64,000 nucleotides of DNA, taken from positions 1,664,001 through 1,728,000 of the forward strand of contig OZ251997.1 of NCBI GenBank assembly GCA_965247095.1, in the 5' to 3' direction. Both the position numbers and the translations under genes were made by a program. Positions 42,062-47,247 of this stretch are shown in pieces (the first letter of the stretch is position 1; every line of letters starts with the position of its first letter). The notes under the pieces were generated by a model. It was not told where the DNA came from and did not search any database. It saw nothing but the letters and a program-made list of their open reading frames with translations. The stretch comes from Candidatus Multivorans sp. Its GTDB lineage: Bacteria; Acidobacteriota; Thermoanaerobaculia; Multivoradales; Multivoraceae.

Positions 42062-42460
42062 CTAAGGCCAGTCGGTGGGTTTCGGTCGCAAAGTCAAGAA
42101 ACTGCTATCCTTGCCGCCTCGGCGGTGACGCTGGCCCCACTCGGCAAGCGTCGCGTAACTCGACAGCACGAGTCAGCGCTTGGCTTCAGCCTTTGTCCTC
42201 TAGACAGTCCGTCCATTCTCGGACGACTCACGTCGCTTGAGGGCCAACTGAACAGCCCGTGGTGCATTCAAGGCTACACCCGCCGCCCGAAATGACGCTC
42301 CGGTACGAAAACCGACTCGCGCAGGTGGAACTGCAGCGAACGCAGGGCAGCCGCCCAGCGGGTTCCGTTCATGGAATCCCGTCGCGGCCTGGTGCCCGCG
42401 CAACCGGAGACGTCCACACCGATTCAACCGACGGCGCACTCGCCGTCACCTGGAGATTTT

Positions 42461-44458
42461 GTGACCCGACGAATGCTCATCAACGCGCAGAGTTCAACCG
42501 AGCTCCGCATCGCCATCGCCAACGACTCGGTACTCGAAGACCTGAAGGTCGAGATCGCCGAGCGGGGGCTGACCCGAGGCAACATCTACTACGGCAAGAT
42601 CGCCAACATCGAGCCGAGCCTGAACGCCGCCTTCATCGACTACGGCGCCCCGAAACACGGCTTCCTGGCCATCCAGGATGTCGTGCCCGACGCGTACTAC
42701 CAGGCGGCGTCTAAGTCCCAGCGAACCAAGATCGAGGACGTACTCGTCCGCGGCCGCCCGATCGTGGTTCAGACCACGCGCGAGCCGGAGGGCAACAAGG
42801 GCGCTGCCCTGACCACGAACCTGAGTCTGGCGGGGCGCTACCTGGTGCTTTCGCCCTTCGACAAGACCAGTGGCGTTTCCCGCAAGGTCGACACCGAGGA
42901 GGTTCGCCTCAAGCTGAAGGCGATGGCGGAGTCGCTGCCGGTGCCCGACGGTGGCGGTGTGATCGTGCGCACCAACGCCCTGGGCCAGACGAAGACGGCC
43001 CTCAGTCGGGACATGAACGCGCTGCTCCGGCTATGGAAGCGCATCTCCCGGGACGCCCGCGACGCAAAGGGCACGAGGCTCCTCTACAGCGATCAGGACA
43101 TCGTGCTGCAGGGGCTGCGTGACTATCTCGACAGCGCGATCGAGGAGGTCTGGGTCGATGAAGACACCGCCTACGCACGCGCCGAGCTGTACATGCGGGC
43201 CTTCATGCCGCGCAGCAAGACGGTGCTGCACCGCTACACGGGCCGCAAGCCGCTGTTCTCGGTTTACGAACTGGAACCTCAGATCGAGAACATCTTCGAA
43301 CGCCGGGCGGAACTGCCCGCCGGCGGCTCGATCGTCATCGACCCGACCGAGGCCCTGACCGCCATCGACGTCAACTCCGGCCGGTCGAAGAAGGGATCGA
43401 GTCAGGAGGAGACCGCGGTCAACACGAACATGGAAGCTGCAGCCGAAGTCGGCCGGCAGCTTCGTCTGCGCGACATCGGCGGCCTGATCGTGGTCGATTT
43501 CATCGACATGCGCAGTCCCCGCAATCGCCGCAAGGTCGAGAAGGCGATGAAGGACGCGATGAAGGCCGACAAGGCGCGCTTCAGCGTCGGCCGGATCAGC
43601 GACAACGGGCTGCTCGAGATCAACCGCCAGCGGATCCACCAGGCGCTCCAGTTGCGCACTCACAGCGACTGCCCGAACTGTGGCGGCACCGGCCGCGTTG
43701 CCAGTCCGGACCTGGTCGCCCTGCGCCTGCTGCGCAACATCGAGTCCCACGGCGCCGCCGGCTACATGCGGGGCGTGCGGATGGCCTTGCAACCGCAGCT
43801 TGCCGACCACCTGCAGAACCGGCACCGCGAAGCGCTCGCGAAGCTCGAACGGGAGTTCGATCTCGAAATCGAGATCGCGGGCGAGCCTCAGATGCAGGGC
43901 CGCGAGCCCGAGATCAGTTGGATCGCTCGCGATCTGGCCGAAGTGAAGAAGCGCGAGCGGGAAGAGGCGCAGGAGAAGAAGCTTGAGCAGGAGATGCTCG
44001 CCACTCCCTCGATCGGCGACACCGACGAAGAACTCGAAGAAGTCGAAGAACACGAGGCGGAAGCCGGCGACGGCGCGGCCGAAGGCGCACCGAAGCGGCG
44101 CCGGCGCCGGGGCGGACGCAGGCGGCGGTCCGCAGCCGCGCGCAAGGCGAAGGAGGAGGCACCCAAGGAGGACGGCGACGCCAGGCAGGACGACGACGCC
44201 AAGCAGGCGAAGACGAGCAAGAAGCGACCCGCCAAGGCGAGGAAGACGGCGGGGACGGCCGCCATCAAGGTGCCCGGCATCGACACTCCGGCGGCGGAAA
44301 CTGCGCCCGGCGGCAATGACACGGCCGGCGACGCAGCCGCGGCGAACGGCAACGGAGCGCCGCGCCCGACCAAGCGGCGGCGACGCCGGCGGCGGCCCCG
44401 CCGGCCCCAGGCCGCCGCGGCGGGCAACGAGTCGCCGCCGGCCGAGACGGCTCCCTGA
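42461..44458 (+). CDS. rne: Rne/Rng family ribonuclease with acidic and Arg-rich tail
   Basis: GNIY.G, AAFID, AIDVNSG, LRDIGGLIVVDFIDM, CPNCGGTG. Confidence 0.9.
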   Translation: MTRRMLINAQSSTELRIAIANDSVLEDLKVEIAERGLTRGNIYYGKIANIEPSLNAAFIDYGAPKHGFLAIQDVVPDAYYQAASKSQRTKIEDVLVRGRPIVVQTTREPEGNKGAALTTNLSLAGRYLVLSPFDKTSGVSRKVDTEEVRLKLKAMAESLPVPDGGGVIVRTNALGQTKTALSRDMNALLRLWKRISRDARDAKGTRLLYSDQDIVLQGLRDYLDSAIEEVWVDEDTAYARAELYMRAFMPRSKTVLHRYTGRKPLFSVYELEPQIENIFERRAELPAGGSIVIDPTEALTAIDVNSGRSKKGSSQEETAVNTNMEAAAEVGRQLRLRDIGGLIVVDFIDMRSPRNRRKVEKAMKDAMKADKARFSVGRISDNGLLEINRQRIHQALQLRTHSDCPNCGGTGRVASPDLVALRLLRNIESHGAAGYMRGVRMALQPQLADHLQNRHREALAKLEREFDLEIEIAGEPQMQGREPEISWIARDLAEVKKREREEAQEKKLEQEMLATPSIGDTDEELEEVEEHEAEAGDGAAEGAPKRRRRRGGRRRRSAAARKAKEEAPKEDGDARQDDDAKQAKTSKKRPAKARKTAGTAAIKVPGIDTPAAETAPGGNDTAGDAAAANGNGAPRPTKRRRRRRRPRRPQAAAAGNESPPAETAP

Positions 44459-44516: not shown

Positions 44517-44546
44517 TTGACAAGGACCCGGCCAATCCATAACTAT
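44517..44546 (+). promoter_or_regulatory. Candidate sigma70 promoter
   Basis: TTGACA at 44517-44522 and AT-rich CATAACTAT at 44538-44546; the -10 is imperfect. Confidence 0.5.
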
Positions 44547-44674
44547 CCCTTCGTAGTCGTTCCGCTCGCGTCGCGAGGCGTCGGCGGCGGTCCCGGGGTC
44601 AATCGGGGCGATCCCGCGACCGGGTGGGTTGGGACCCACCACTTTGTGGATGTGCCCGGAAAGGAGGTGGTCTA

Positions 44675-44719
44675 GTGGAATACTGCAGATGCGGCTTGAT
44701 GGAGGTGGCGGCTCCCTAG
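44675..44719 (+). CDS. Candidate 14-aa peptide MEYCRCGLMEVAAP
   Basis: GTG...TAG directly after AAAGGAGGTGGTCTA, a very strong Shine-Dalgarno. Confidence 0.45.
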   Translation: MEYCRCGLMEVAAP

Positions 44720-44826
44720 GTAACCCCTACCTGGCGTAGGGCGCCTCCTTCGGGAAGCGATCCCACGCCATCCCATCGGCCAAACGCTTGACCGAGCCGC
44801 GCAAGCCGCGGTCCAAGAGCGTCACC

Positions 44827-44868
44827 GGAGCCCCGAGGAGCAGACGCCCTCGGGGCTCCTTCCTTTCC
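44827..44868 (+). terminator. Terminator-like hairpin
   Basis: GGAGCCCCGAGG/CCTCGGGGCTCC 12-bp perfect stem followed by TTCCTTTCC. Confidence 0.65.
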
Positions 44869-44985
44869 GATTCGCCTCAGGGCCCTGGACCCCTCAGAGC
44901 CCAGTTCCGTACAATCGCCCCCCACAATCCTGGTTCCATCCGCGCGCCCGATGACGGGCGTGCGGATTCACCGGCGGAGACGAAC

Positions 44986-47247
44986 ATGGCGGCGATCGGC
45001 ACCCCCACAAAACTGCTCGAGGGCAAACCCAAGGTCAAGGGCTCGCTGCGCTACTGCGGCGACCTCGAACGGCCCGGGCTGCTCCATGTCCGTCTGGTCA
45101 CCAGCCCGCACGCGCACGCCGAGGTGCTGAGCATCGATACCGCGGCGGCTGAGGCCATGCCCGGCGTCGCCGCCGTCATCACGGCAGCGGATCTGCCCGA
45201 ACTCCCGGCCAATAGCCGAGCGATGCTCATGCTCGCGCGCGATCGGGTCATCTTCGTCGGCCATCCGGTCGCCCTGGTCCTGGCCGAGGACGAGGCCCGG
45301 GGCGCGGATGCAGCGGAACTGGTCGAGGTCGACTACCGGCCGCTCGACGCCGCGGTCACCCTGGAACAGGCCGAGGCCCCTTCGGCGCCGCCGGTGTGGC
45401 CCGACGGCCTGCCCGGCCAGTCCGCGGAGGCAGCGGCGCACGGCGCCGGGGGCGCCGGCGACGACGGCGGCGCGGGTCCCTCGTCGCCCAACGTGACGAA
45501 CCGCATGCGCTTTGACCGCGGCGACCTCGCCGCCGGCTTCGCCGCCGCCGACGCCGTGGTCGAACGGAGCTTCACCACCGCGGCGGTTCACCAGTCCTAC
45601 CTCGAACCGCACGTGGCTCTGGTCGACCCGGACCCGATGGGCACCGGAATGACGATCTACAGCTCTACCCAGGCGACGTTCTACATCCGGGACACGGTCG
45701 CCTACGTGCTCGGCCTGTCCCACGAGCAAGTGCGCGTGATCGGCACGCCGGTCGGCGGCGGCTTCGGCGGAAAGTTCCTACTTTACGAACCGCTCCTGGC
45801 CATCGCCGCGACGCAGCTCCAGCGCCCGGTGCGACTGATGATGAGCCGAACCGAGGAGATGCTGGCCGCCACTCCCGCGCCCTCGACCCGGATCACGATT
45901 CGCGCCGGCGCCAAGCGGAGCGGCGAGCTGACGGCGCTGGAAGCCGAGCTGGCGATGGACTGCGGCTGCTTCCCATCTTCCATGACCGCACTCGCCGGCA
46001 CCCTGCTCGGCAGTTCCTACCAGACGCCGAATCAGTCCGTCGGCAGCTACGAGGTCGTCACGAACAAGCCCTCGATCGGCGCCTACCGTGCGCCGCTGGC
46101 GCCGCAGGCGGCGTTCGTGGTTGAGACCGTGCTCGATCAACTGGCCCAGGAGTTGGGGCTCGACCCCCTCGAGATGCGGCTCATGAACGCCTCGGAGTCC
46201 GGCCAGCCGATGGCCTCCGGAATGCCCTGGGCCGGCATGGGCCAGCGCCAGGTGCTGGAGGCGCTGCAGGCCCACCCCTCGTGGCAAAACCGCGAGCAGG
46301 CAAGGGCGGAGGGCCGCGGAGTCGGCATCGCGCTCGGGGCCTGGCCGGGCGGCACGGAGCCCGCGGCGGCCGCCTGCGCGCTCCAGGGCGACGGTACGCT
46401 CAAGGTTCACATCAGTTCGGCCGACATCACCGGCACGAACACGAGTCTGGCCCTGATCGCGGCCGAGGCCTTCGGCGTCGAACCGGAACGGGTCACGATC
46501 GCCACCGGCGACACCTCGAGCGGACCCTTCGCCGGCTCCTCCGGCGGCAGCAAGATCCTCTACACGGTCGGGCCGCCAGTGATTCAGGCCGCCCGTGAGG
46601 CCCGGCAGCAGACCCTGGAGCTGGCCGCGGCCACGTTCGAAGCAGCACCCGAAGACCTAGAGATCGTGGACGGAGAGGTCCGGGTCAAGGGATCGCCCGA
46701 CAAGGCCATTCCGCTCAAGAAAATCGCCCAACGCACGATGCGCTTCGGCAGCCGGCAGGCGCCGGTGTTCGGCCACGGACGCCACGCCCAGACCGGTCAG
46801 GCGCCCGGTTTCTGCGCCCAGCTCGCCGAGGTGGCGGTCGACCGGGAAACAGGCCGGGTGAAGGTCGAGAAGGTGGTCGTGGTCCAGGACTGCGGACGCG
46901 CGATCAACCCGCCGGCAGTCGAAGGGCAGATGATGGGCGGCGCCATGCAGGGCATCGGTTGGGCGCTCTACGAGGAGATGGCCTACAGCGACGACGGCCA
47001 ACTGCTGACAGCGACCCTGAACGACTACGCCCTGCCTCACTTCGTCCACGGTCCGACCGAACTCGAGACGGTGCTTGTCGAGGTGCCCTCGGACAGCGGG
47101 CCCTTCGGCGCCCGCGGCGTCGGCGAACCGCCCGTTATTCCTACCGCGGCCGCGGTCGCCAACGCAATCGCCGATGCCTGCGGCGCCCGACTCACCGAGC
47201 TGCCGATGACGCCGCCGCGCGTCCTGGCTGCCATCAACGGAGCCTGA
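44986..47247 (+). CDS. Xanthine dehydrogenase family molybdopterin-binding (large) subunit
   Basis: SPHAHA, YLEPH, GGGFGGK, AYRAP, VEGQMMGG, GVGEPP. Confidence 0.92.
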   Translation: MAAIGTPTKLLEGKPKVKGSLRYCGDLERPGLLHVRLVTSPHAHAEVLSIDTAAAEAMPGVAAVITAADLPELPANSRAMLMLARDRVIFVGHPVALVLAEDEARGADAAELVEVDYRPLDAAVTLEQAEAPSAPPVWPDGLPGQSAEAAAHGAGGAGDDGGAGPSSPNVTNRMRFDRGDLAAGFAAADAVVERSFTTAAVHQSYLEPHVALVDPDPMGTGMTIYSSTQATFYIRDTVAYVLGLSHEQVRVIGTPVGGGFGGKFLLYEPLLAIAATQLQRPVRLMMSRTEEMLAATPAPSTRITIRAGAKRSGELTALEAELAMDCGCFPSSMTALAGTLLGSSYQTPNQSVGSYEVVTNKPSIGAYRAPLAPQAAFVVETVLDQLAQELGLDPLEMRLMNASESGQPMASGMPWAGMGQRQVLEALQAHPSWQNREQARAEGRGVGIALGAWPGGTEPAAAACALQGDGTLKVHISSADITGTNTSLALIAAEAFGVEPERVTIATGDTSSGPFAGSSGGSKILYTVGPPVIQAAREARQQTLELAAATFEAAPEDLEIVDGEVRVKGSPDKAIPLKKIAQRTMRFGSRQAPVFGHGRHAQTGQAPGFCAQLAEVAVDRETGRVKVEKVVVVQDCGRAINPPAVEGQMMGGAMQGIGWALYEEMAYSDDGQLLTATLNDYALPHFVHGPTELETVLVEVPSDSGPFGARGVGEPPVIPTAAAVANAIADACGARLTELPMTPPRVLAAINGA

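Follow-up and report, generated by a model that had tools for sequence, protein, structure and literature searches.

A conserved pseudoknotted RNA gene built around an extended Shine-Dalgarno site and a mini-ORF in Candidatus Multivorans: a possible ribosome-gated switch

The window analyzed here, a 64,000-nt stretch of the genome of Candidatus Multivorans sp. (assembly GCA_965247095.1, contig OZ251997.1), contains a locus that lies between RNase E upstream and a molybdopterin oxidoreductase gene downstream. The existing annotation shows just an empty 528-nt intergenic gap at this place. An earlier note, made from the letters of the window, had singled out a 60-nt unit in which a complement of the 16S rRNA 3' end, taken as an extended Shine-Dalgarno (SD) site, drives a very short open reading frame (ORF). 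That site is real and conserved; what the note missed is that it forms the core of a predicted, free-standing RNA gene, some 310 nt long and equipped with a promoter-like site and a terminator of its own, and comparative analysis shows the pseudoknotted fold of this RNA to be conserved. The features of the locus are as follows.

44517..44546, + strand: promoter-like site, TTGACA (44517-44522), a 17-nt spacer and TAACTAT (44540-44546), read from the sequence
44553..44866, + strand: whole predicted RNA, about 310 nt, its ends deduced from promoter and terminator
44562..44587, + strand: predicted hairpin P1, from the minimum free energy (MFE) fold and alignments by eye
44589..44621, + strand: stem-loop P2, 44589-44594 with 44616-44621; 6/6 and 3/3 pairs changed on both sides
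44623..44640, + strand: hairpin P3, GGUGGG/CCCACC; 98.4% of cells paired, 6/6 pairs compensated
44653..44657, + strand: 3' strand of pseudoknot PK2, UGCCC, pairing with 44606-44610; 91.7% paired
44658..44675, + strand: SD1, complement of the free 16S 3' tail, with the core AGGAGGUGGUC at 44662-44672
44675..44719, + strand: mini-ORF, GTG start, 14 codons (MEYCRCGLMEVAAP), TAG at 44717-44719; open in 95/95 copies
44701..44710, + strand: SD2-like GGAGGUGGCG, of which GGUGGCG (44704-44710) is the 5' strand of helix H
44725..44741, + strand: predicted hairpin CCCUAC/GUAGGG, the genus's counterpart of P5, from the MFE fold
44744..44757, + strand: hairpin P6 with a UUCG loop; 87.4% paired, 4/4 pairs compensated
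44761..44772, + strand: UCCCA (44761-44765, 3' strand of pseudoknot PK1), then CGCCAUC (44766-44772, 3' strand of helix H), from covariation
44790..44813, + strand: extra hairpin GACCGAGCCGCG...CGCGGUC, found in the window's genus only, from the MFE fold and alignments
44827..44868, + strand: terminator hairpin GGAGCCCCGAGG...CCCUCGGGGCUCC followed by UUCCUUUCC, from the sequence and the MFE fold

The 16-mer AAAGGAGGTGGTCTAG occupies positions 44660-44675 of the forward strand, and its final G is also the first base of the GTG at 44675-44677, which opens a frame of 14 codons closed by TAG, all as the earlier note had read it. The sole 16S gene of the genome ends ...GGCTGGATCACCTCCTTT|CTAAGG, and the 16-mer forms 14 Watson-Crick and two G.U pairs with CUGGAUCACCUCCUUU of this gene; the 16-nt pairing with two G-U pairs, which had been proposed from the usual 16S tail, thus holds for the tail of this genome. 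At the last three positions, the CUG facing the site's UAG would belong to what we take, from the E. coli secondary structure, to be the 3' strand of helix 45, and the third-last position is free to vary among relatives (A/U/G/C). The usable complement comes to about 13-16 nt and may reach 2 nt further 5' (GG, 44658-44659) if mature 16S ends in ...UUUCU. When both strands of the 4.6-Mb genome were ranked by pairing energy with GGAUCACCUCCUUUCU, the site came first at -27.1 kcal/mol, after the 16S antisense strand at -30.3 kcal/mol and closely trailed by the following genomic site at -26.2 kcal/mol. This margin is small, and the site is judged to be more than chance because of its conservation, which we consider decisive. 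The site is conserved in 24 of 24 genomes of the same genus and, among 16 genomes of the order's other families, in 5; BLAST conservation also supports the extent of the whole predicted RNA (44553..44866). The SD, the start, the ORF length and the second GGAGG site are retained across two phyla; these are the features on whose persistence in relatives the earlier note had made its case depend. The SD1 stretch reads [AG]G[AG]GG[UC]G[AG]U[CU] in 95 of 95 distinct copies, a motif that was itself the search key locating the SD and that all 95 fit, and within the motif positions its departures from the full 16S-tail complement are mostly transitions.

Genomes were sampled from two phyla and searched with a covariance model of the RNA, which matched 25 of 151 in the window's own phylum and 40 of 81 in the second. 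Records with the titles Fibrobacteraceae, Krumholzibacteriia and Latescibacterota belong to a single phylum of the genome collection. Each carrier genome has one match, except for a single genome with an extra weak partial match. A pattern fixing SD1, GTG and GGAGGTGGCG found 71 of the 95 copies, and claims about these three elements rest on the 23 model-found copies that cover the region and on 10 divergent copies; the open-frame and multiple-of-three results given below are unbiased by this pattern.

Several observations indicate an independent transcription unit. The TTGACA keeps a constant position in the genus and in distant homologs, and 55 of 94 distinct loci have a TTGAC in the 70 nt that precede the RNA. 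An automated promoter scan missed this site, its rule for the -10 element being unmet, and the automated terminator scan likewise passed over the terminator, in which the T-run is interrupted; by a criterion devised in this analysis, a terminator-like hairpin with a T-run is present at 63 of 94 distinct loci. The stretches 44546-44783, 44555-44831, 44564-44762 and 44571-44779 are represented by metatranscriptome contigs, none of the contigs bridges the RNA to a flanking gene, and contigs from three studies are confined to the RNA. One contig has a depth of 66.7 compared with 6.1 and 6.8 for the flanks, a hint that comes from assembled contigs, whose depths cannot rank expression and whose uncovered stretches do not signify absence. 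DNA carry-over or an earlier start is possible, because one contig carries 26 extra letters resembling the -10 region of a relative. On this evidence the RNA is apparently expressed.

The predicted RNA folds with an MFE of -157.9 kcal/mol (z -2.89), and none of 100 shuffled sequences did as well. The covariation analysis found 32 of 41 pairs compensated, with 0 of 500 shuffles reaching the observed values, and 91.5% of the cells pair, compared with 37-55% after sliding the partners. The resulting fold includes two pseudoknots. P1 varies in sequence between lineages and its 3' strand ends in a conserved GGCGG, while the P2 region (helices 1 and 2) offers exchanges such as UA:41, CG:36. The loop of P2 contributes GGGCG (44606-44610) as the 5' strand of PK2, whose 3' strand directly abuts the SD on its 5' side; 5 of 6 PK2 pairs changed on both sides, one of them distributed as GC:83, AU:9, and strand combinations such as GAGCG/CGCUC, UAGGCG/CGCCUA and GCCC/GGGC are found. 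In the same manner, the UGGGA (44630-44634) within the P3 loop UUGGGA (44629-44634) is the 5' strand of PK1, and an extra G in this loop is accompanied by an extra C in the 44761-44772 segment in 10 of 14 copies, compared with 0 of 54 without the extra G, as judged by eye. Two other arrangements of this region were rejected: a G-quadruplex built from the four GGG runs of P2 and P3, against which covariation favors the helices, and a pairing of the P3 3' strand with either the GGCGG at the P1/P2 junction or the loop of P2, for which no co-variation was seen by eye.

The 3' domain is tied to the ORF by helix H, a long-range pairing of GGUGGCG with CGCCAYC that is 99.3% paired (one pair GC:91, AU:6). 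In some copies a change from GCG to GCA is matched by one from CGCC to UGCC, being at once compensatory and synonymous. A match to CC(N1-3)YGYCRHB, most commonly CCCAACGCCACC, lies 40-123 nt past the SD2 site in 79 of 80 representatives. The GGAGGTG at 44701-44707, 9 nt ahead of the TAG, had been noticed earlier as a second SD inside the ORF; it is present and conserved, but what had been overlooked is that it contributes a strand to this covarying helix. Between the two strands of helix H, single-sequence folds of other lineages show P5 as a two-tier CCUCC...GGAGG hairpin, and the P6 stem is CCCC/GGGG in most lineages, its register in the window having been set by eye.

The geometry of the mini-ORF relative to this fold is constrained. 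The ORF is 12-16 codons long among the 95 distinct copies, the distance from start to helix H is 23, 26, 29, 32 or 35 nt, with 29 nt in 78 of 95 copies, and all 17 copies off the modal length differ by 3, 6 or 9 nt. The stop codon (TAG in 56, TAA in 29 and TGA in 10 of the 95 copies) falls 6 or 9 nt past the helix H strand, and frames +1 and +2 contain stops in 47 and 48 of 68 copies. Divergent members may start with UUG or AUG and still retain the ORF. Taken together, these comparisons show a predicted mini-ORF that evolution has kept open, in frame and 12-16 codons long. It might be added that conservation of the frame might merely serve a clean release of ribosomes, without any switch.

Maintenance of start, frame and stop is what would be expected of a small-protein gene or a dual-function sRNA, and the earlier note had offered a highly expressed micropeptide as one option. 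In such a reading the 12-16-residue peptide would be active and the fold would only control its synthesis. A recurrent Gly at codon 7 (50 of 68 copies, third base free) and an acidic or Ser residue recurring at codon 2 also speak for such a product. We nevertheless find this reading very improbable, since the peptide itself drifts freely. The codon-position entropies are 1.31, 1.38 and 1.42 for positions 1, 2 and 3, with no third-position excess of variation and hence no sign of purifying selection on amino acids, although a 14-codon ORF is too short for dN/dS and makes this a coarse test. Swaps of E/K and L/S arise by single transitions, and codons 2-6 are highly variable, with no residue class enriched except those fixed by the RNA helix. 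The best-kept residues, E-V-A, are encoded by the helix H strand and are altered where the RNA allows, the EVA motif highlighted earlier becoming KVA, KVV, EVS, EVT or GGA in divergent copies. A variant group with Eisenbacteria titles uses another frame of the same RNA motif, with the stop 5 nt past the same helix H strand, and the CxC motif to which the earlier note gave weight is limited to the window's genus. The known dual-function RNAs SgrS/SgrT, RNAIII/hld and SR1/SR1P are, like this RNA, small, independently transcribed and structured, and carry a translated ORF, as this RNA carries an ORF; their peptides, however, are conserved and active, whereas here the peptide drifts and the pairing and ORF geometry are kept. 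The peptide would thus appear to be a by-product.

Given that a very short ORF is followed by a hairpin and a U-run, a cis-acting leader has to be considered as well, in which the mini-ORF would be a leader peptide and the hairpin an attenuator of the downstream molybdopterin oxidoreductase gene. The 14-codon length resembles that of classical leader peptides such as trpL, the terminator comes after the ORF and the next gene in the window is co-oriented. In the wider comparison these likenesses do not extend to a constant co-oriented gene or operon: flanking gene families vary by lineage, the downstream families (MoCo oxidoreductase, GEVED, BamB-like, TetR) are unrelated, and the downstream gene has the same orientation in 46 loci and the opposite one in 45 of the 91, according to a crude gene pick by GC3 times length. 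The mini-ORF lacks conserved regulatory codons, and the downstream gene has a promoter-like site of its own at 44886-44915. Because the flanking genes vary and the downstream orientation is split 46:45, we conclude that the RNA is not a leader; attenuation of the Mo-oxidoreductase gene is largely refuted and has very little probability left. Leader-peptide attenuators still share with this RNA a very short ORF for which translation rather than product would matter, and in both, as proposed here, translation remodels downstream RNA pairing; the present RNA differs from them in having no regulated downstream gene and no conserved regulatory codons, and in the placement of its ORF within a large pseudoknotted fold. 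RNase E is the upstream neighbor in the window's genus only (32 same-strand cases, all in the genus) and is absent from the upstream side of 68 loci for which 2.5 kb or more of that side is available, and a functional link to it was rejected. All-against-all clustering of ORFs flanking the non-genus loci gave no protein family common to the flanks across lineages, its largest cluster consisting of antisense or low-complexity ORFs, and a conserved neighboring protein was rejected on these grounds.

The earlier note had called the system undescribed. Rfam 15 gave no match at E<=1 in the window region apart from an unrelated naRNA4 hit, and none of 11 diverse homolog loci had a family at or near threshold, which excluded a known RNA family as its identity; a literature search over titles and abstract openings found no paper on this RNA, an absence that is not proof of its being undescribed. 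No riboswitch model matched in the same Rfam searches and no regulated metabolic gene stands beside the RNA, although a conserved pseudoknotted domain ending right at an SD invites that comparison. The genome has a normal tmRNA elsewhere (RF00023, 134.7 bits), as well as 6S RNA (71.7 bits) and RNase P RNA (232.6 bits); neither of the latter two models matches in this region and ARAGORN detected no tRNA or tmRNA in the window, so that all three were rejected as identities. tmRNA is nonetheless a relevant comparison, being a pseudoknot-rich housekeeping-type RNA with a short internal frame whose stop sits in a hairpin, as the alignments indicate for the present frame; it differs in that no tRNA-like domain is found here and entry would be by SD and start codon, not by trans-translation.

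What the claim of novelty had missed is RF01867, the CC2171 RNA known from Caulobacter and further Alphaproteobacteria; no other weak hit recurred among the homolog loci. Its consensus opens with ...GAAAGGAGGUGAUCCAGUG, a full 16S-tail complement running into GUG and thus the same SD-GUG fusion; the window's version of this motif is GAAAGGAGGUGGUCUAGUG, and the identical 19-mer occurs in many relatives. The two RNAs are also alike in being stand-alone small RNAs with their own promoter-like site and terminator, in having a short ORF from that GUG (14-29 codons in 102 distinct metagenome loci for CC2171), in a long-range helix from the ORF to a segment just before the terminator (for CC2171, 73 of the 102 loci have, further downstream, a segment that is exactly the reverse complement of ORF nt 7-13) and in carrying internal 16S-tail look-alikes. 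Neither family's model, however, recognizes the other. RF01867, whose gathering score is 75 bits, gave 28.1 and 26.3 bits on 2 of the 11 homolog loci, and its five weak hits in a search of the complete genome at E<=10 all lay away from this locus; used as a positive control, metagenome loci with the CC2171 5' motif reached 76.7-104.4 bits in 7 of 18 cases. The model of the present RNA (R1) reached at most 24.3 bits on 45 CC2171-like loci. In architecture, CC2171 has a short leader in place of the pseudoknotted 5' domain of about 100 nt, a longer ORF that starts with MSHC, and a multi-hairpin body before the terminator; the long-range helix closing this body uses codons 3-5, whereas ours comes from the last codons of the ORF. 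The common SD-GUG motif may stem from a shared ancestor or from convergence on the 16S tail. CC2171 is reported to have been validated by Northern blot, with the condition affecting it not identified in that work (10.1101/2022.01.24.477521).

The internal look-alikes of the 16S tail bear on a further explanation, according to which the RNA is a scaffold or decoy: helices resembling the SD:anti-SD duplex (GGUGGCG/CGCCACC, CCUCC/GGAGG) together with the 16S-tail look-alikes (GGGAUCCUCCA or GGGAUCACCCC), or else the C/A-rich linker ahead of the terminator, would bind a protein or RNA target, and translation of the mini-ORF would only tune access or stability. Within the molecule, SD1 finds its best partners in these look-alikes, which stand just past the stop or at P6, and the ORF of the CC2171-like RNAs, which are unrelated by model, contains CTGG[AG][TCA]C in 64 of the 102 loci; the distant homologs read have a single-stranded C/A-rich stretch of 10-25 nt before the terminator. 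We regard this explanation as improbable, given that the gene neighborhood links no partner protein, that the look-alike positions differ between clades and that SD1 is nearly invariant, so that no covariation for such pairing is available.

A translation-state sensor or a ribosome-capturing RNA remains the best class of explanation. The earlier note's view that the RNA engages ribosomes gains support from the conserved SD, ORF and second site, while its sponge and sensor mechanisms, like the steps that follow, stay at the level of what we infer from geometry and conservation. Our preferred reading, to which we give nearly an even chance, is that of a ribosome-gated RNA switch or translation-state sensor. 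The folded 5' domain (P1-P3 and PK2) would end at an unpaired SD matching nearly the whole free 16S tail, on which a 30S subunit could load with high affinity and place the GUG in the P site. A ribosome translating the mini-ORF would reach helix H with its leading edge from about codon 6, and by the stop it would have opened helix H together with the adjoining PK1, which ties the 3' domain to P3. Termination would take place at a fixed position, 6 or 9 nt past the H strand and usually in a small hairpin loop, where the SD2-like GGAGG, about 8 nt upstream of the P site, could re-pair with the anti-SD. The RNA would thereby alternate between a closed, ribosome-free fold and an opened, ribosome-occupied form, and the share of RNA in each state would report the availability of free ribosomes. 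Candidate downstream outputs are a bound protein, a pairing target or the decay of the RNA itself.

Much of the same geometry would suit an RNA that captures or parks ribosomes, in which the long SD duplex, the barrier of helix H and PK1 and the second SD hold a 30S subunit or a 70S ribosome, storing or titrating ribosomes, for example in slow growth, and the in-frame stop only lets held ribosomes leave eventually. Work on over-long SDs in E. coli suggests that a duplex of 13-16 bp could hold the ribosome back at the start rather than help it leave, which favors this alternative, as do the rank of the site as the strongest 16S-tail complement of the genome apart from the 16S antisense strand, the predominance of transitions, by which a wobble pair can be kept, among SD changes in copies found without fixing the SD, the prevailing 29-nt distance to helix H, the initiation-like spacing of the SD2-like site from the last sense codon and a promoter near consensus. 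The STAB-SD of cryIIIA mRNA likewise has long 16S complementarity holding 30S subunits, and its core GAAAGGAGG is the same as that of the present RNA; it differs in standing at the 5' end of an mRNA with no start codon after it, whereas SD1, some 100 nt from the start of the RNA and behind a folded domain, drives an ORF that is conserved. With one gene copy per genome, however, titration would require very high levels of the RNA. Of the 23 model-found copies in which SD2 is covered, 4 have its GGAGG weakened to CGAGG, GAAGG, UAAGG or UGAGG, several divergent copies also have a weakened SD2, and the elaborate, covarying 5' and 3' domains would be left unexplained. We therefore hold capture to be unlikely, though the most serious competitor of the ribosome-gated switch.

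More speculatively, and with distinctly less confidence than in the switch itself, this RNA may belong to a new class of housekeeping-type RNAs that need translation and convert the level of free ribosomes into a conformational signal, with CC2171 as an independently shaped second member. Compact and pseudoknotted, it would offer a complement of the entire free 16S tail, accept one ribosome and have a defined helix unzipped by it in the course of 14 codons. The two RNAs would be united by the GAAAGGAGGUGAUCCAGUG entry site and by internal mimics of the 16S tail, and the RNA would be for the ribosome the proposed counterpart of what 6S RNA is for RNA polymerase.

The RNA gene occurs in many lineages of soil, sediment and wastewater and merits addition to RNA family libraries. 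If the proposed reading is true, two or more bacterial phyla maintain an RNA dedicated to having its fold worked by the ribosome itself, and Alphaproteobacteria may do likewise through CC2171, an Rfam family that has been without a function since its discovery and would thereby gain a first functional handle. It would also provide a natural model of how ribosomes, at initiation and at termination, respond to very long SD duplexes and to pseudoknots downstream, and an example of a mini-ORF kept because it is translated, whatever peptide results. Growth-rate control still poses the question of how translational capacity is sensed or buffered, and such an RNA would represent a new means to this end.

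A predicted RNA of ~310 nt (about 44553-44866, +) contains at 44660-44675 the sequence AAAGGAGGTGGTCTAG, which the earlier note had described as a 16-nt complement of the 16S rRNA 3' end with two G.U pairs. This agrees with the host's own 16S sequence: the host genome is one 4.6-Mb contig with a single 16S gene that ends in ...GGCTGGATCACCTCCTTT and is followed by CTAAGG, and the 16-mer therefore complements CUGGAUCACCUCCUUU with two G.U pairs. When the query tail GGAUCACCUCCUUUCU was scored for duplexes on both strands of the whole genome, only the antisense strand of the 16S gene itself (-30.3 kcal/mol) scored better than this site (SD1, -27.1 kcal/mol), a rank that alone is weak proof because the next-best genomic site already reaches -26.2 kcal/mol. 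The final three paired positions of the 16-mer lie in what we take to be helix 45, by analogy of the host 16S with the E. coli structure, and the third-last position of the complement varies freely among relatives; the functional complement is ~13-16 nt. In two metatranscriptome runs, contigs at depth 150.5 and 107.6 match only 34 nt (44646-44679, minus strand, 4 differences), and these are most simply 3' ends of 16S rRNA from other organisms, illustrating the complementarity. SD1 leads into a mini-ORF that the window sequence confirms as claimed, with GTG at 44675, 14 codons (MEYCRCGLMEVAAP), TAG at 44717-44719 and, inside it and before the stop, a second GGAGGTG at 44701-44707 (SD2).

The RNA is a stand-alone gene. 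It sits in a 528-nt gap between the first and the last of the following features.

42371-44458, +: RNase E/G gene (Pfam RNase_E_G, 1.8e-93, plus a thioredoxin-like domain)
44886-44915, +: promoter-like site TGGACC-18-TACAAT, preceding the molybdopterin-binding oxidoreductase gene
44986-47244, +: molybdopterin-binding oxidoreductase gene (aldehyde oxidase / xanthine dehydrogenase family)

The RNase E/G of the window has a long C-terminal tail rich in Arg/Ala/Pro, and the motif GTTCCGTAACAATCG, noted alongside the oxidoreductase gene and its promoter-like site, is kept throughout the genus. Clustering of the flanking ORFs gave no family common to different lineages. A same-strand RNase E gene precedes the RNA at 32 loci, every one in the window's genus, and none is seen at 68 loci where the upstream sequence extends for 2.5 kb or more; the downstream genes vary (MoCo oxidoreductase, GEVED-domain protein, BamB-like protein, TetR regulator), the nearest, by a crude pick, being co-oriented at 46 loci and opposed at 45. 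Of 94 distinct loci, 55 have TTGAC no more than 70 nt 5' of the RNA, and a terminator-like hairpin with a T-run, by our own criterion, follows it in 63 of the 94; the consensus scan of the window listed neither a promoter-like element nor a terminator of the RNA. The window has no tRNA or tmRNA, an Rfam search of the region returned no family match, and ordinary tmRNA, 6S and RNase P RNAs are present elsewhere in the host genome. In one Thermoanaerobaculia-titled genome a four-tRNA gene cluster lies ~1.1 kb upstream of the RNA (L026:3-399, -), and at another locus (L034) a tRNA-like 3' end was seen by eye downstream of it.

Four metatranscriptome runs from three studies, available as assemblies and not as reads, contain short contigs that stay within the RNA (44564-44762, 44555-44831, 44546-44783 and 44571-44779), none of the contigs in these runs bridging it to a flanking gene. 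In one run the depth is 66.7 for the RNA contig and 6.1 and 6.8 for those that flank it, and one RNA contig carries 26 extra letters resembling the -10 region of a relative. Together these contigs are at most a weak indication that a discrete transcript exists.

Within the genus, the intergenic gap holding the RNA is kept in 24/24 genomes at 77-94% identity, and the core surrounding SD1 is conserved in 5/16 genomes from other families of the order. Oriented alignments indicate that distant copies too keep TTGACA upstream, the SD with its GTG, a short frame with a stop in the same place, and a hairpin with a U-run. A pattern scan with one genome per species yielded at least 120 stretches; Acidobacteriota lineages are named in 62 of the 80 listed titles (Thermoanaerobaculia 21, Vicinamibacteria 14, Ca. 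Multivoradales/Multivorans 7, Marinacidobacterales 4, unspecified 16), the others being Krumholzibacteriia (6), Latescibacterota (2), Fibrobacteraceae (1), Eisenbacteria (1) and only "bacterium" (8). A covariance model based on 68 representatives (R1) matched 25/151 sampled genomes of the window's phylum, with presence uniform inside families (e.g. 5/5, 6/6, 2/2) and many families at 0, and 40/81 sampled genomes of a second phylum, which contains all Fibrobacteraceae-, Krumholzibacteriia- and Latescibacterota-titled records; these counts come from genome samples under strict filters, so that an unmatched genome does not mean that the RNA is absent. Every matching genome except one has a single match.

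The structure, derived by inspecting the alignments and supplemented with two pseudoknots, comprises the following elements in the window.

44562-44587, +: hairpin P1
44589-44621, +: hairpin P2
44623-44640, +: hairpin P3
44606-44610 with 44653-44657, +: pseudoknot PK2, P2 loop GGGCG with UGCCC, the latter ending one base 5' of the SD stretch
44630-44634 with 44761-44765, +: pseudoknot PK1, P3 loop UGGGA with UCCCA
44704-44710 with 44766-44772, +: long-range helix H, GGUGGCG with CGCCAUC, 99.3% paired
44744-44757, +: hairpin P6
44790-44813, +: extra hairpin GACCGAGCCGCG...CGCGGUC of the window's genus, 3' of the conserved core and 5' of the terminator
44827-44868, +: terminator

Across 100 R1-aligned matches (98 distinct rows), 91.5% of 3900 cells pair, versus 37-55% with partners slid by 1-3 columns, an alignment fitted to the nested part of the structure and biased in its favour, with the pseudoknots outside the model. 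Changes on both sides occur in 32 of 41 pairs, and 0 of 500 shuffles reached any of five measures. The single-sequence fold of the window RNA (-157.9 kcal/mol, z -2.89) recovers P1, P2, P3, H and the terminator. The 5' strand of helix H consists of the codons for E-V-A and part of SD2, and copies with GCA for GCG have the partner UGCC instead of CGCC, a change both compensatory and synonymous. The stop codon of most lineages falls within a small hairpin loop, and a two-tier CCUCC...GGAGG hairpin follows it; the window's genus has a different hairpin in place of the two-tier one, and the extra hairpin is absent from genus members L018 and L019 and from all other lineages. Four near-adjacent GGG runs (UGGGCGG...CCGGGCGGGUUGGGA) in the P2-P3 region, e.g. 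44606-44633, are kept across the RNA family; a G-quadruplex formed from them is possible in principle, but the covariation favours helices.

All 95 distinct full-length copies have a start codon (GTG 94, TTG 1) and a frame open for 12-16 codons. The distance from start to H strand is 23, 26, 29, 32 or 35 nt, with 29 nt modal (78/95) and all 17 remaining copies off by multiples of three; the stop follows 6 or 9 nt past the H strand (TAG 56, TAA 29, TGA 10), and frames +1 and +2 hold stops in 47 and 48, respectively, of 68 distinct 14-codon copies. A scan pattern fixing SD, GTG and GGAGGTGGCG supplied 71 of the 95, and the multiple-of-three and open-frame results are unbiased because that pattern accepted any spacer of 17-32 nt. 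The natural range was judged on 23 copies found by R1 only and covering the region, plus 10 more divergent ones: the start may be UUG, or AUG behind a longer spacer; SD1 varies mainly by transitions that still allow wobble (GGGGG for GGAGG, GAUU for GAUC) and occasionally by changes that do not pair (GGCGA in L173, GGUAG in L191); 4 of the 23 have a reduced SD2 core; and the mini-ORF tail is KVA, KVV, EVS, EVT or GGA.

Variation is even over codon positions 1, 2 and 3 (entropy 1.31, 1.38 and 1.42), and single transitions give E/K and L/S exchanges. A variant group of three loci (L134, L137 and L104, whose title names Eisenbacteria) lacks the pseudoknotted 5' domain, retains SD and GTG, and reads GGAGGUGGCGG in another frame (MHKxGLSGGGGS, 12 codons), stopping 5 nt past the same H strand; the two of these loci tested match R1 in its 3' half only (36.4 and 35.2 bits). 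As judged from the aligned copies, conservation bears on the entry site, on the openness and fixed length of the frame and on the position of the stop with respect to helix H, and not on the peptide. A micropeptide with a CxC motif, as the earlier note had suggested, is not borne out, given the even entropy, the residue exchanges and the frame change in the variant group.

In Rfam, RF01867 (Caulobacter sRNA CC2171) alone gave a recurring signal, at 28.1 and 26.3 bits in 2/11 relatives against a gathering score of 75; in the search of the host genome it had no match at the window RNA locus. CC2171 is an uncharacterised alphaproteobacterial sRNA family, which one preprint reports as detected by Northern and as having no known function (10.1101/2022.01.24.477521). 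Its consensus opens ...GAAAGGAGGUGAUCCAGUG, the same entry motif as in the window RNA family. Scanning metagenomes for this motif extended by four more consensus letters yielded 102 distinct CC2171-like loci (L199-L278 among them), with a promoter-like site, a terminator, a GTG ORF of 14-29 codons (MSHC...) and a helix between ORF nt 7-13 and a pre-terminator segment (exact complement in 73/102); 64/102 carry CTGG[AG][TCA]C in the ORF, a CUGGAUC-type look-alike of the 16S 3' end. The CC2171 family seems broader than the Rfam model because only 7 of 18 such loci tested reach its threshold. R1 scored at most 24.3 bits on 45 CC2171-like loci, and by model the two are separate families with the entry site and general plan in common.

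The consensus fold leaves SD1 unpaired and places it directly 3' of PK2, the start codon comes one base after the SD1 duplex, and helix H starts 29 nt past the start. The leading edge of a ribosome is ~13 nt ahead of its P site; a translating ribosome would reach helix H near codon 6 and would have unwound it on arriving at the stop, an opening that would also free the neighbouring PK1 strand and release the 3' domain from P3. With the ribosome at the stop, GGAGG stands ~8 nt upstream of the P-site codon, an initiation-like spacing. From the unpaired SD1, the geometry of start and helix H, and the SD2 spacing, we therefore read the RNA, tentatively and with slightly more doubt than belief, as a switch run by the translating ribosome that may report or buffer free ribosomes. 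Capture or parking of ribosomes would differ from this mainly in ribosome dwell time and seems improbable. The ribosome-centred part of the earlier interpretation is thus retained, as inferred, in the form of the putative switch, and its micropeptide part is dropped. The best intramolecular partners of SD1 are internal look-alikes of the 16S tail, GGGAUCCUCCA past the stop or GGGAUCACCCC at P6, which suggests that SD:anti-SD-like pairings may compete within the RNA.

On comparative sequence evidence, the RNA is a new, widely distributed structured family with an integral mini-ORF that is predicted to be translated. It sits among sORF-bearing or leader-like RNAs, the nearest being CC2171, and it might, although we are rather doubtful of this, represent a distinct class of ribosome-operated RNAs.
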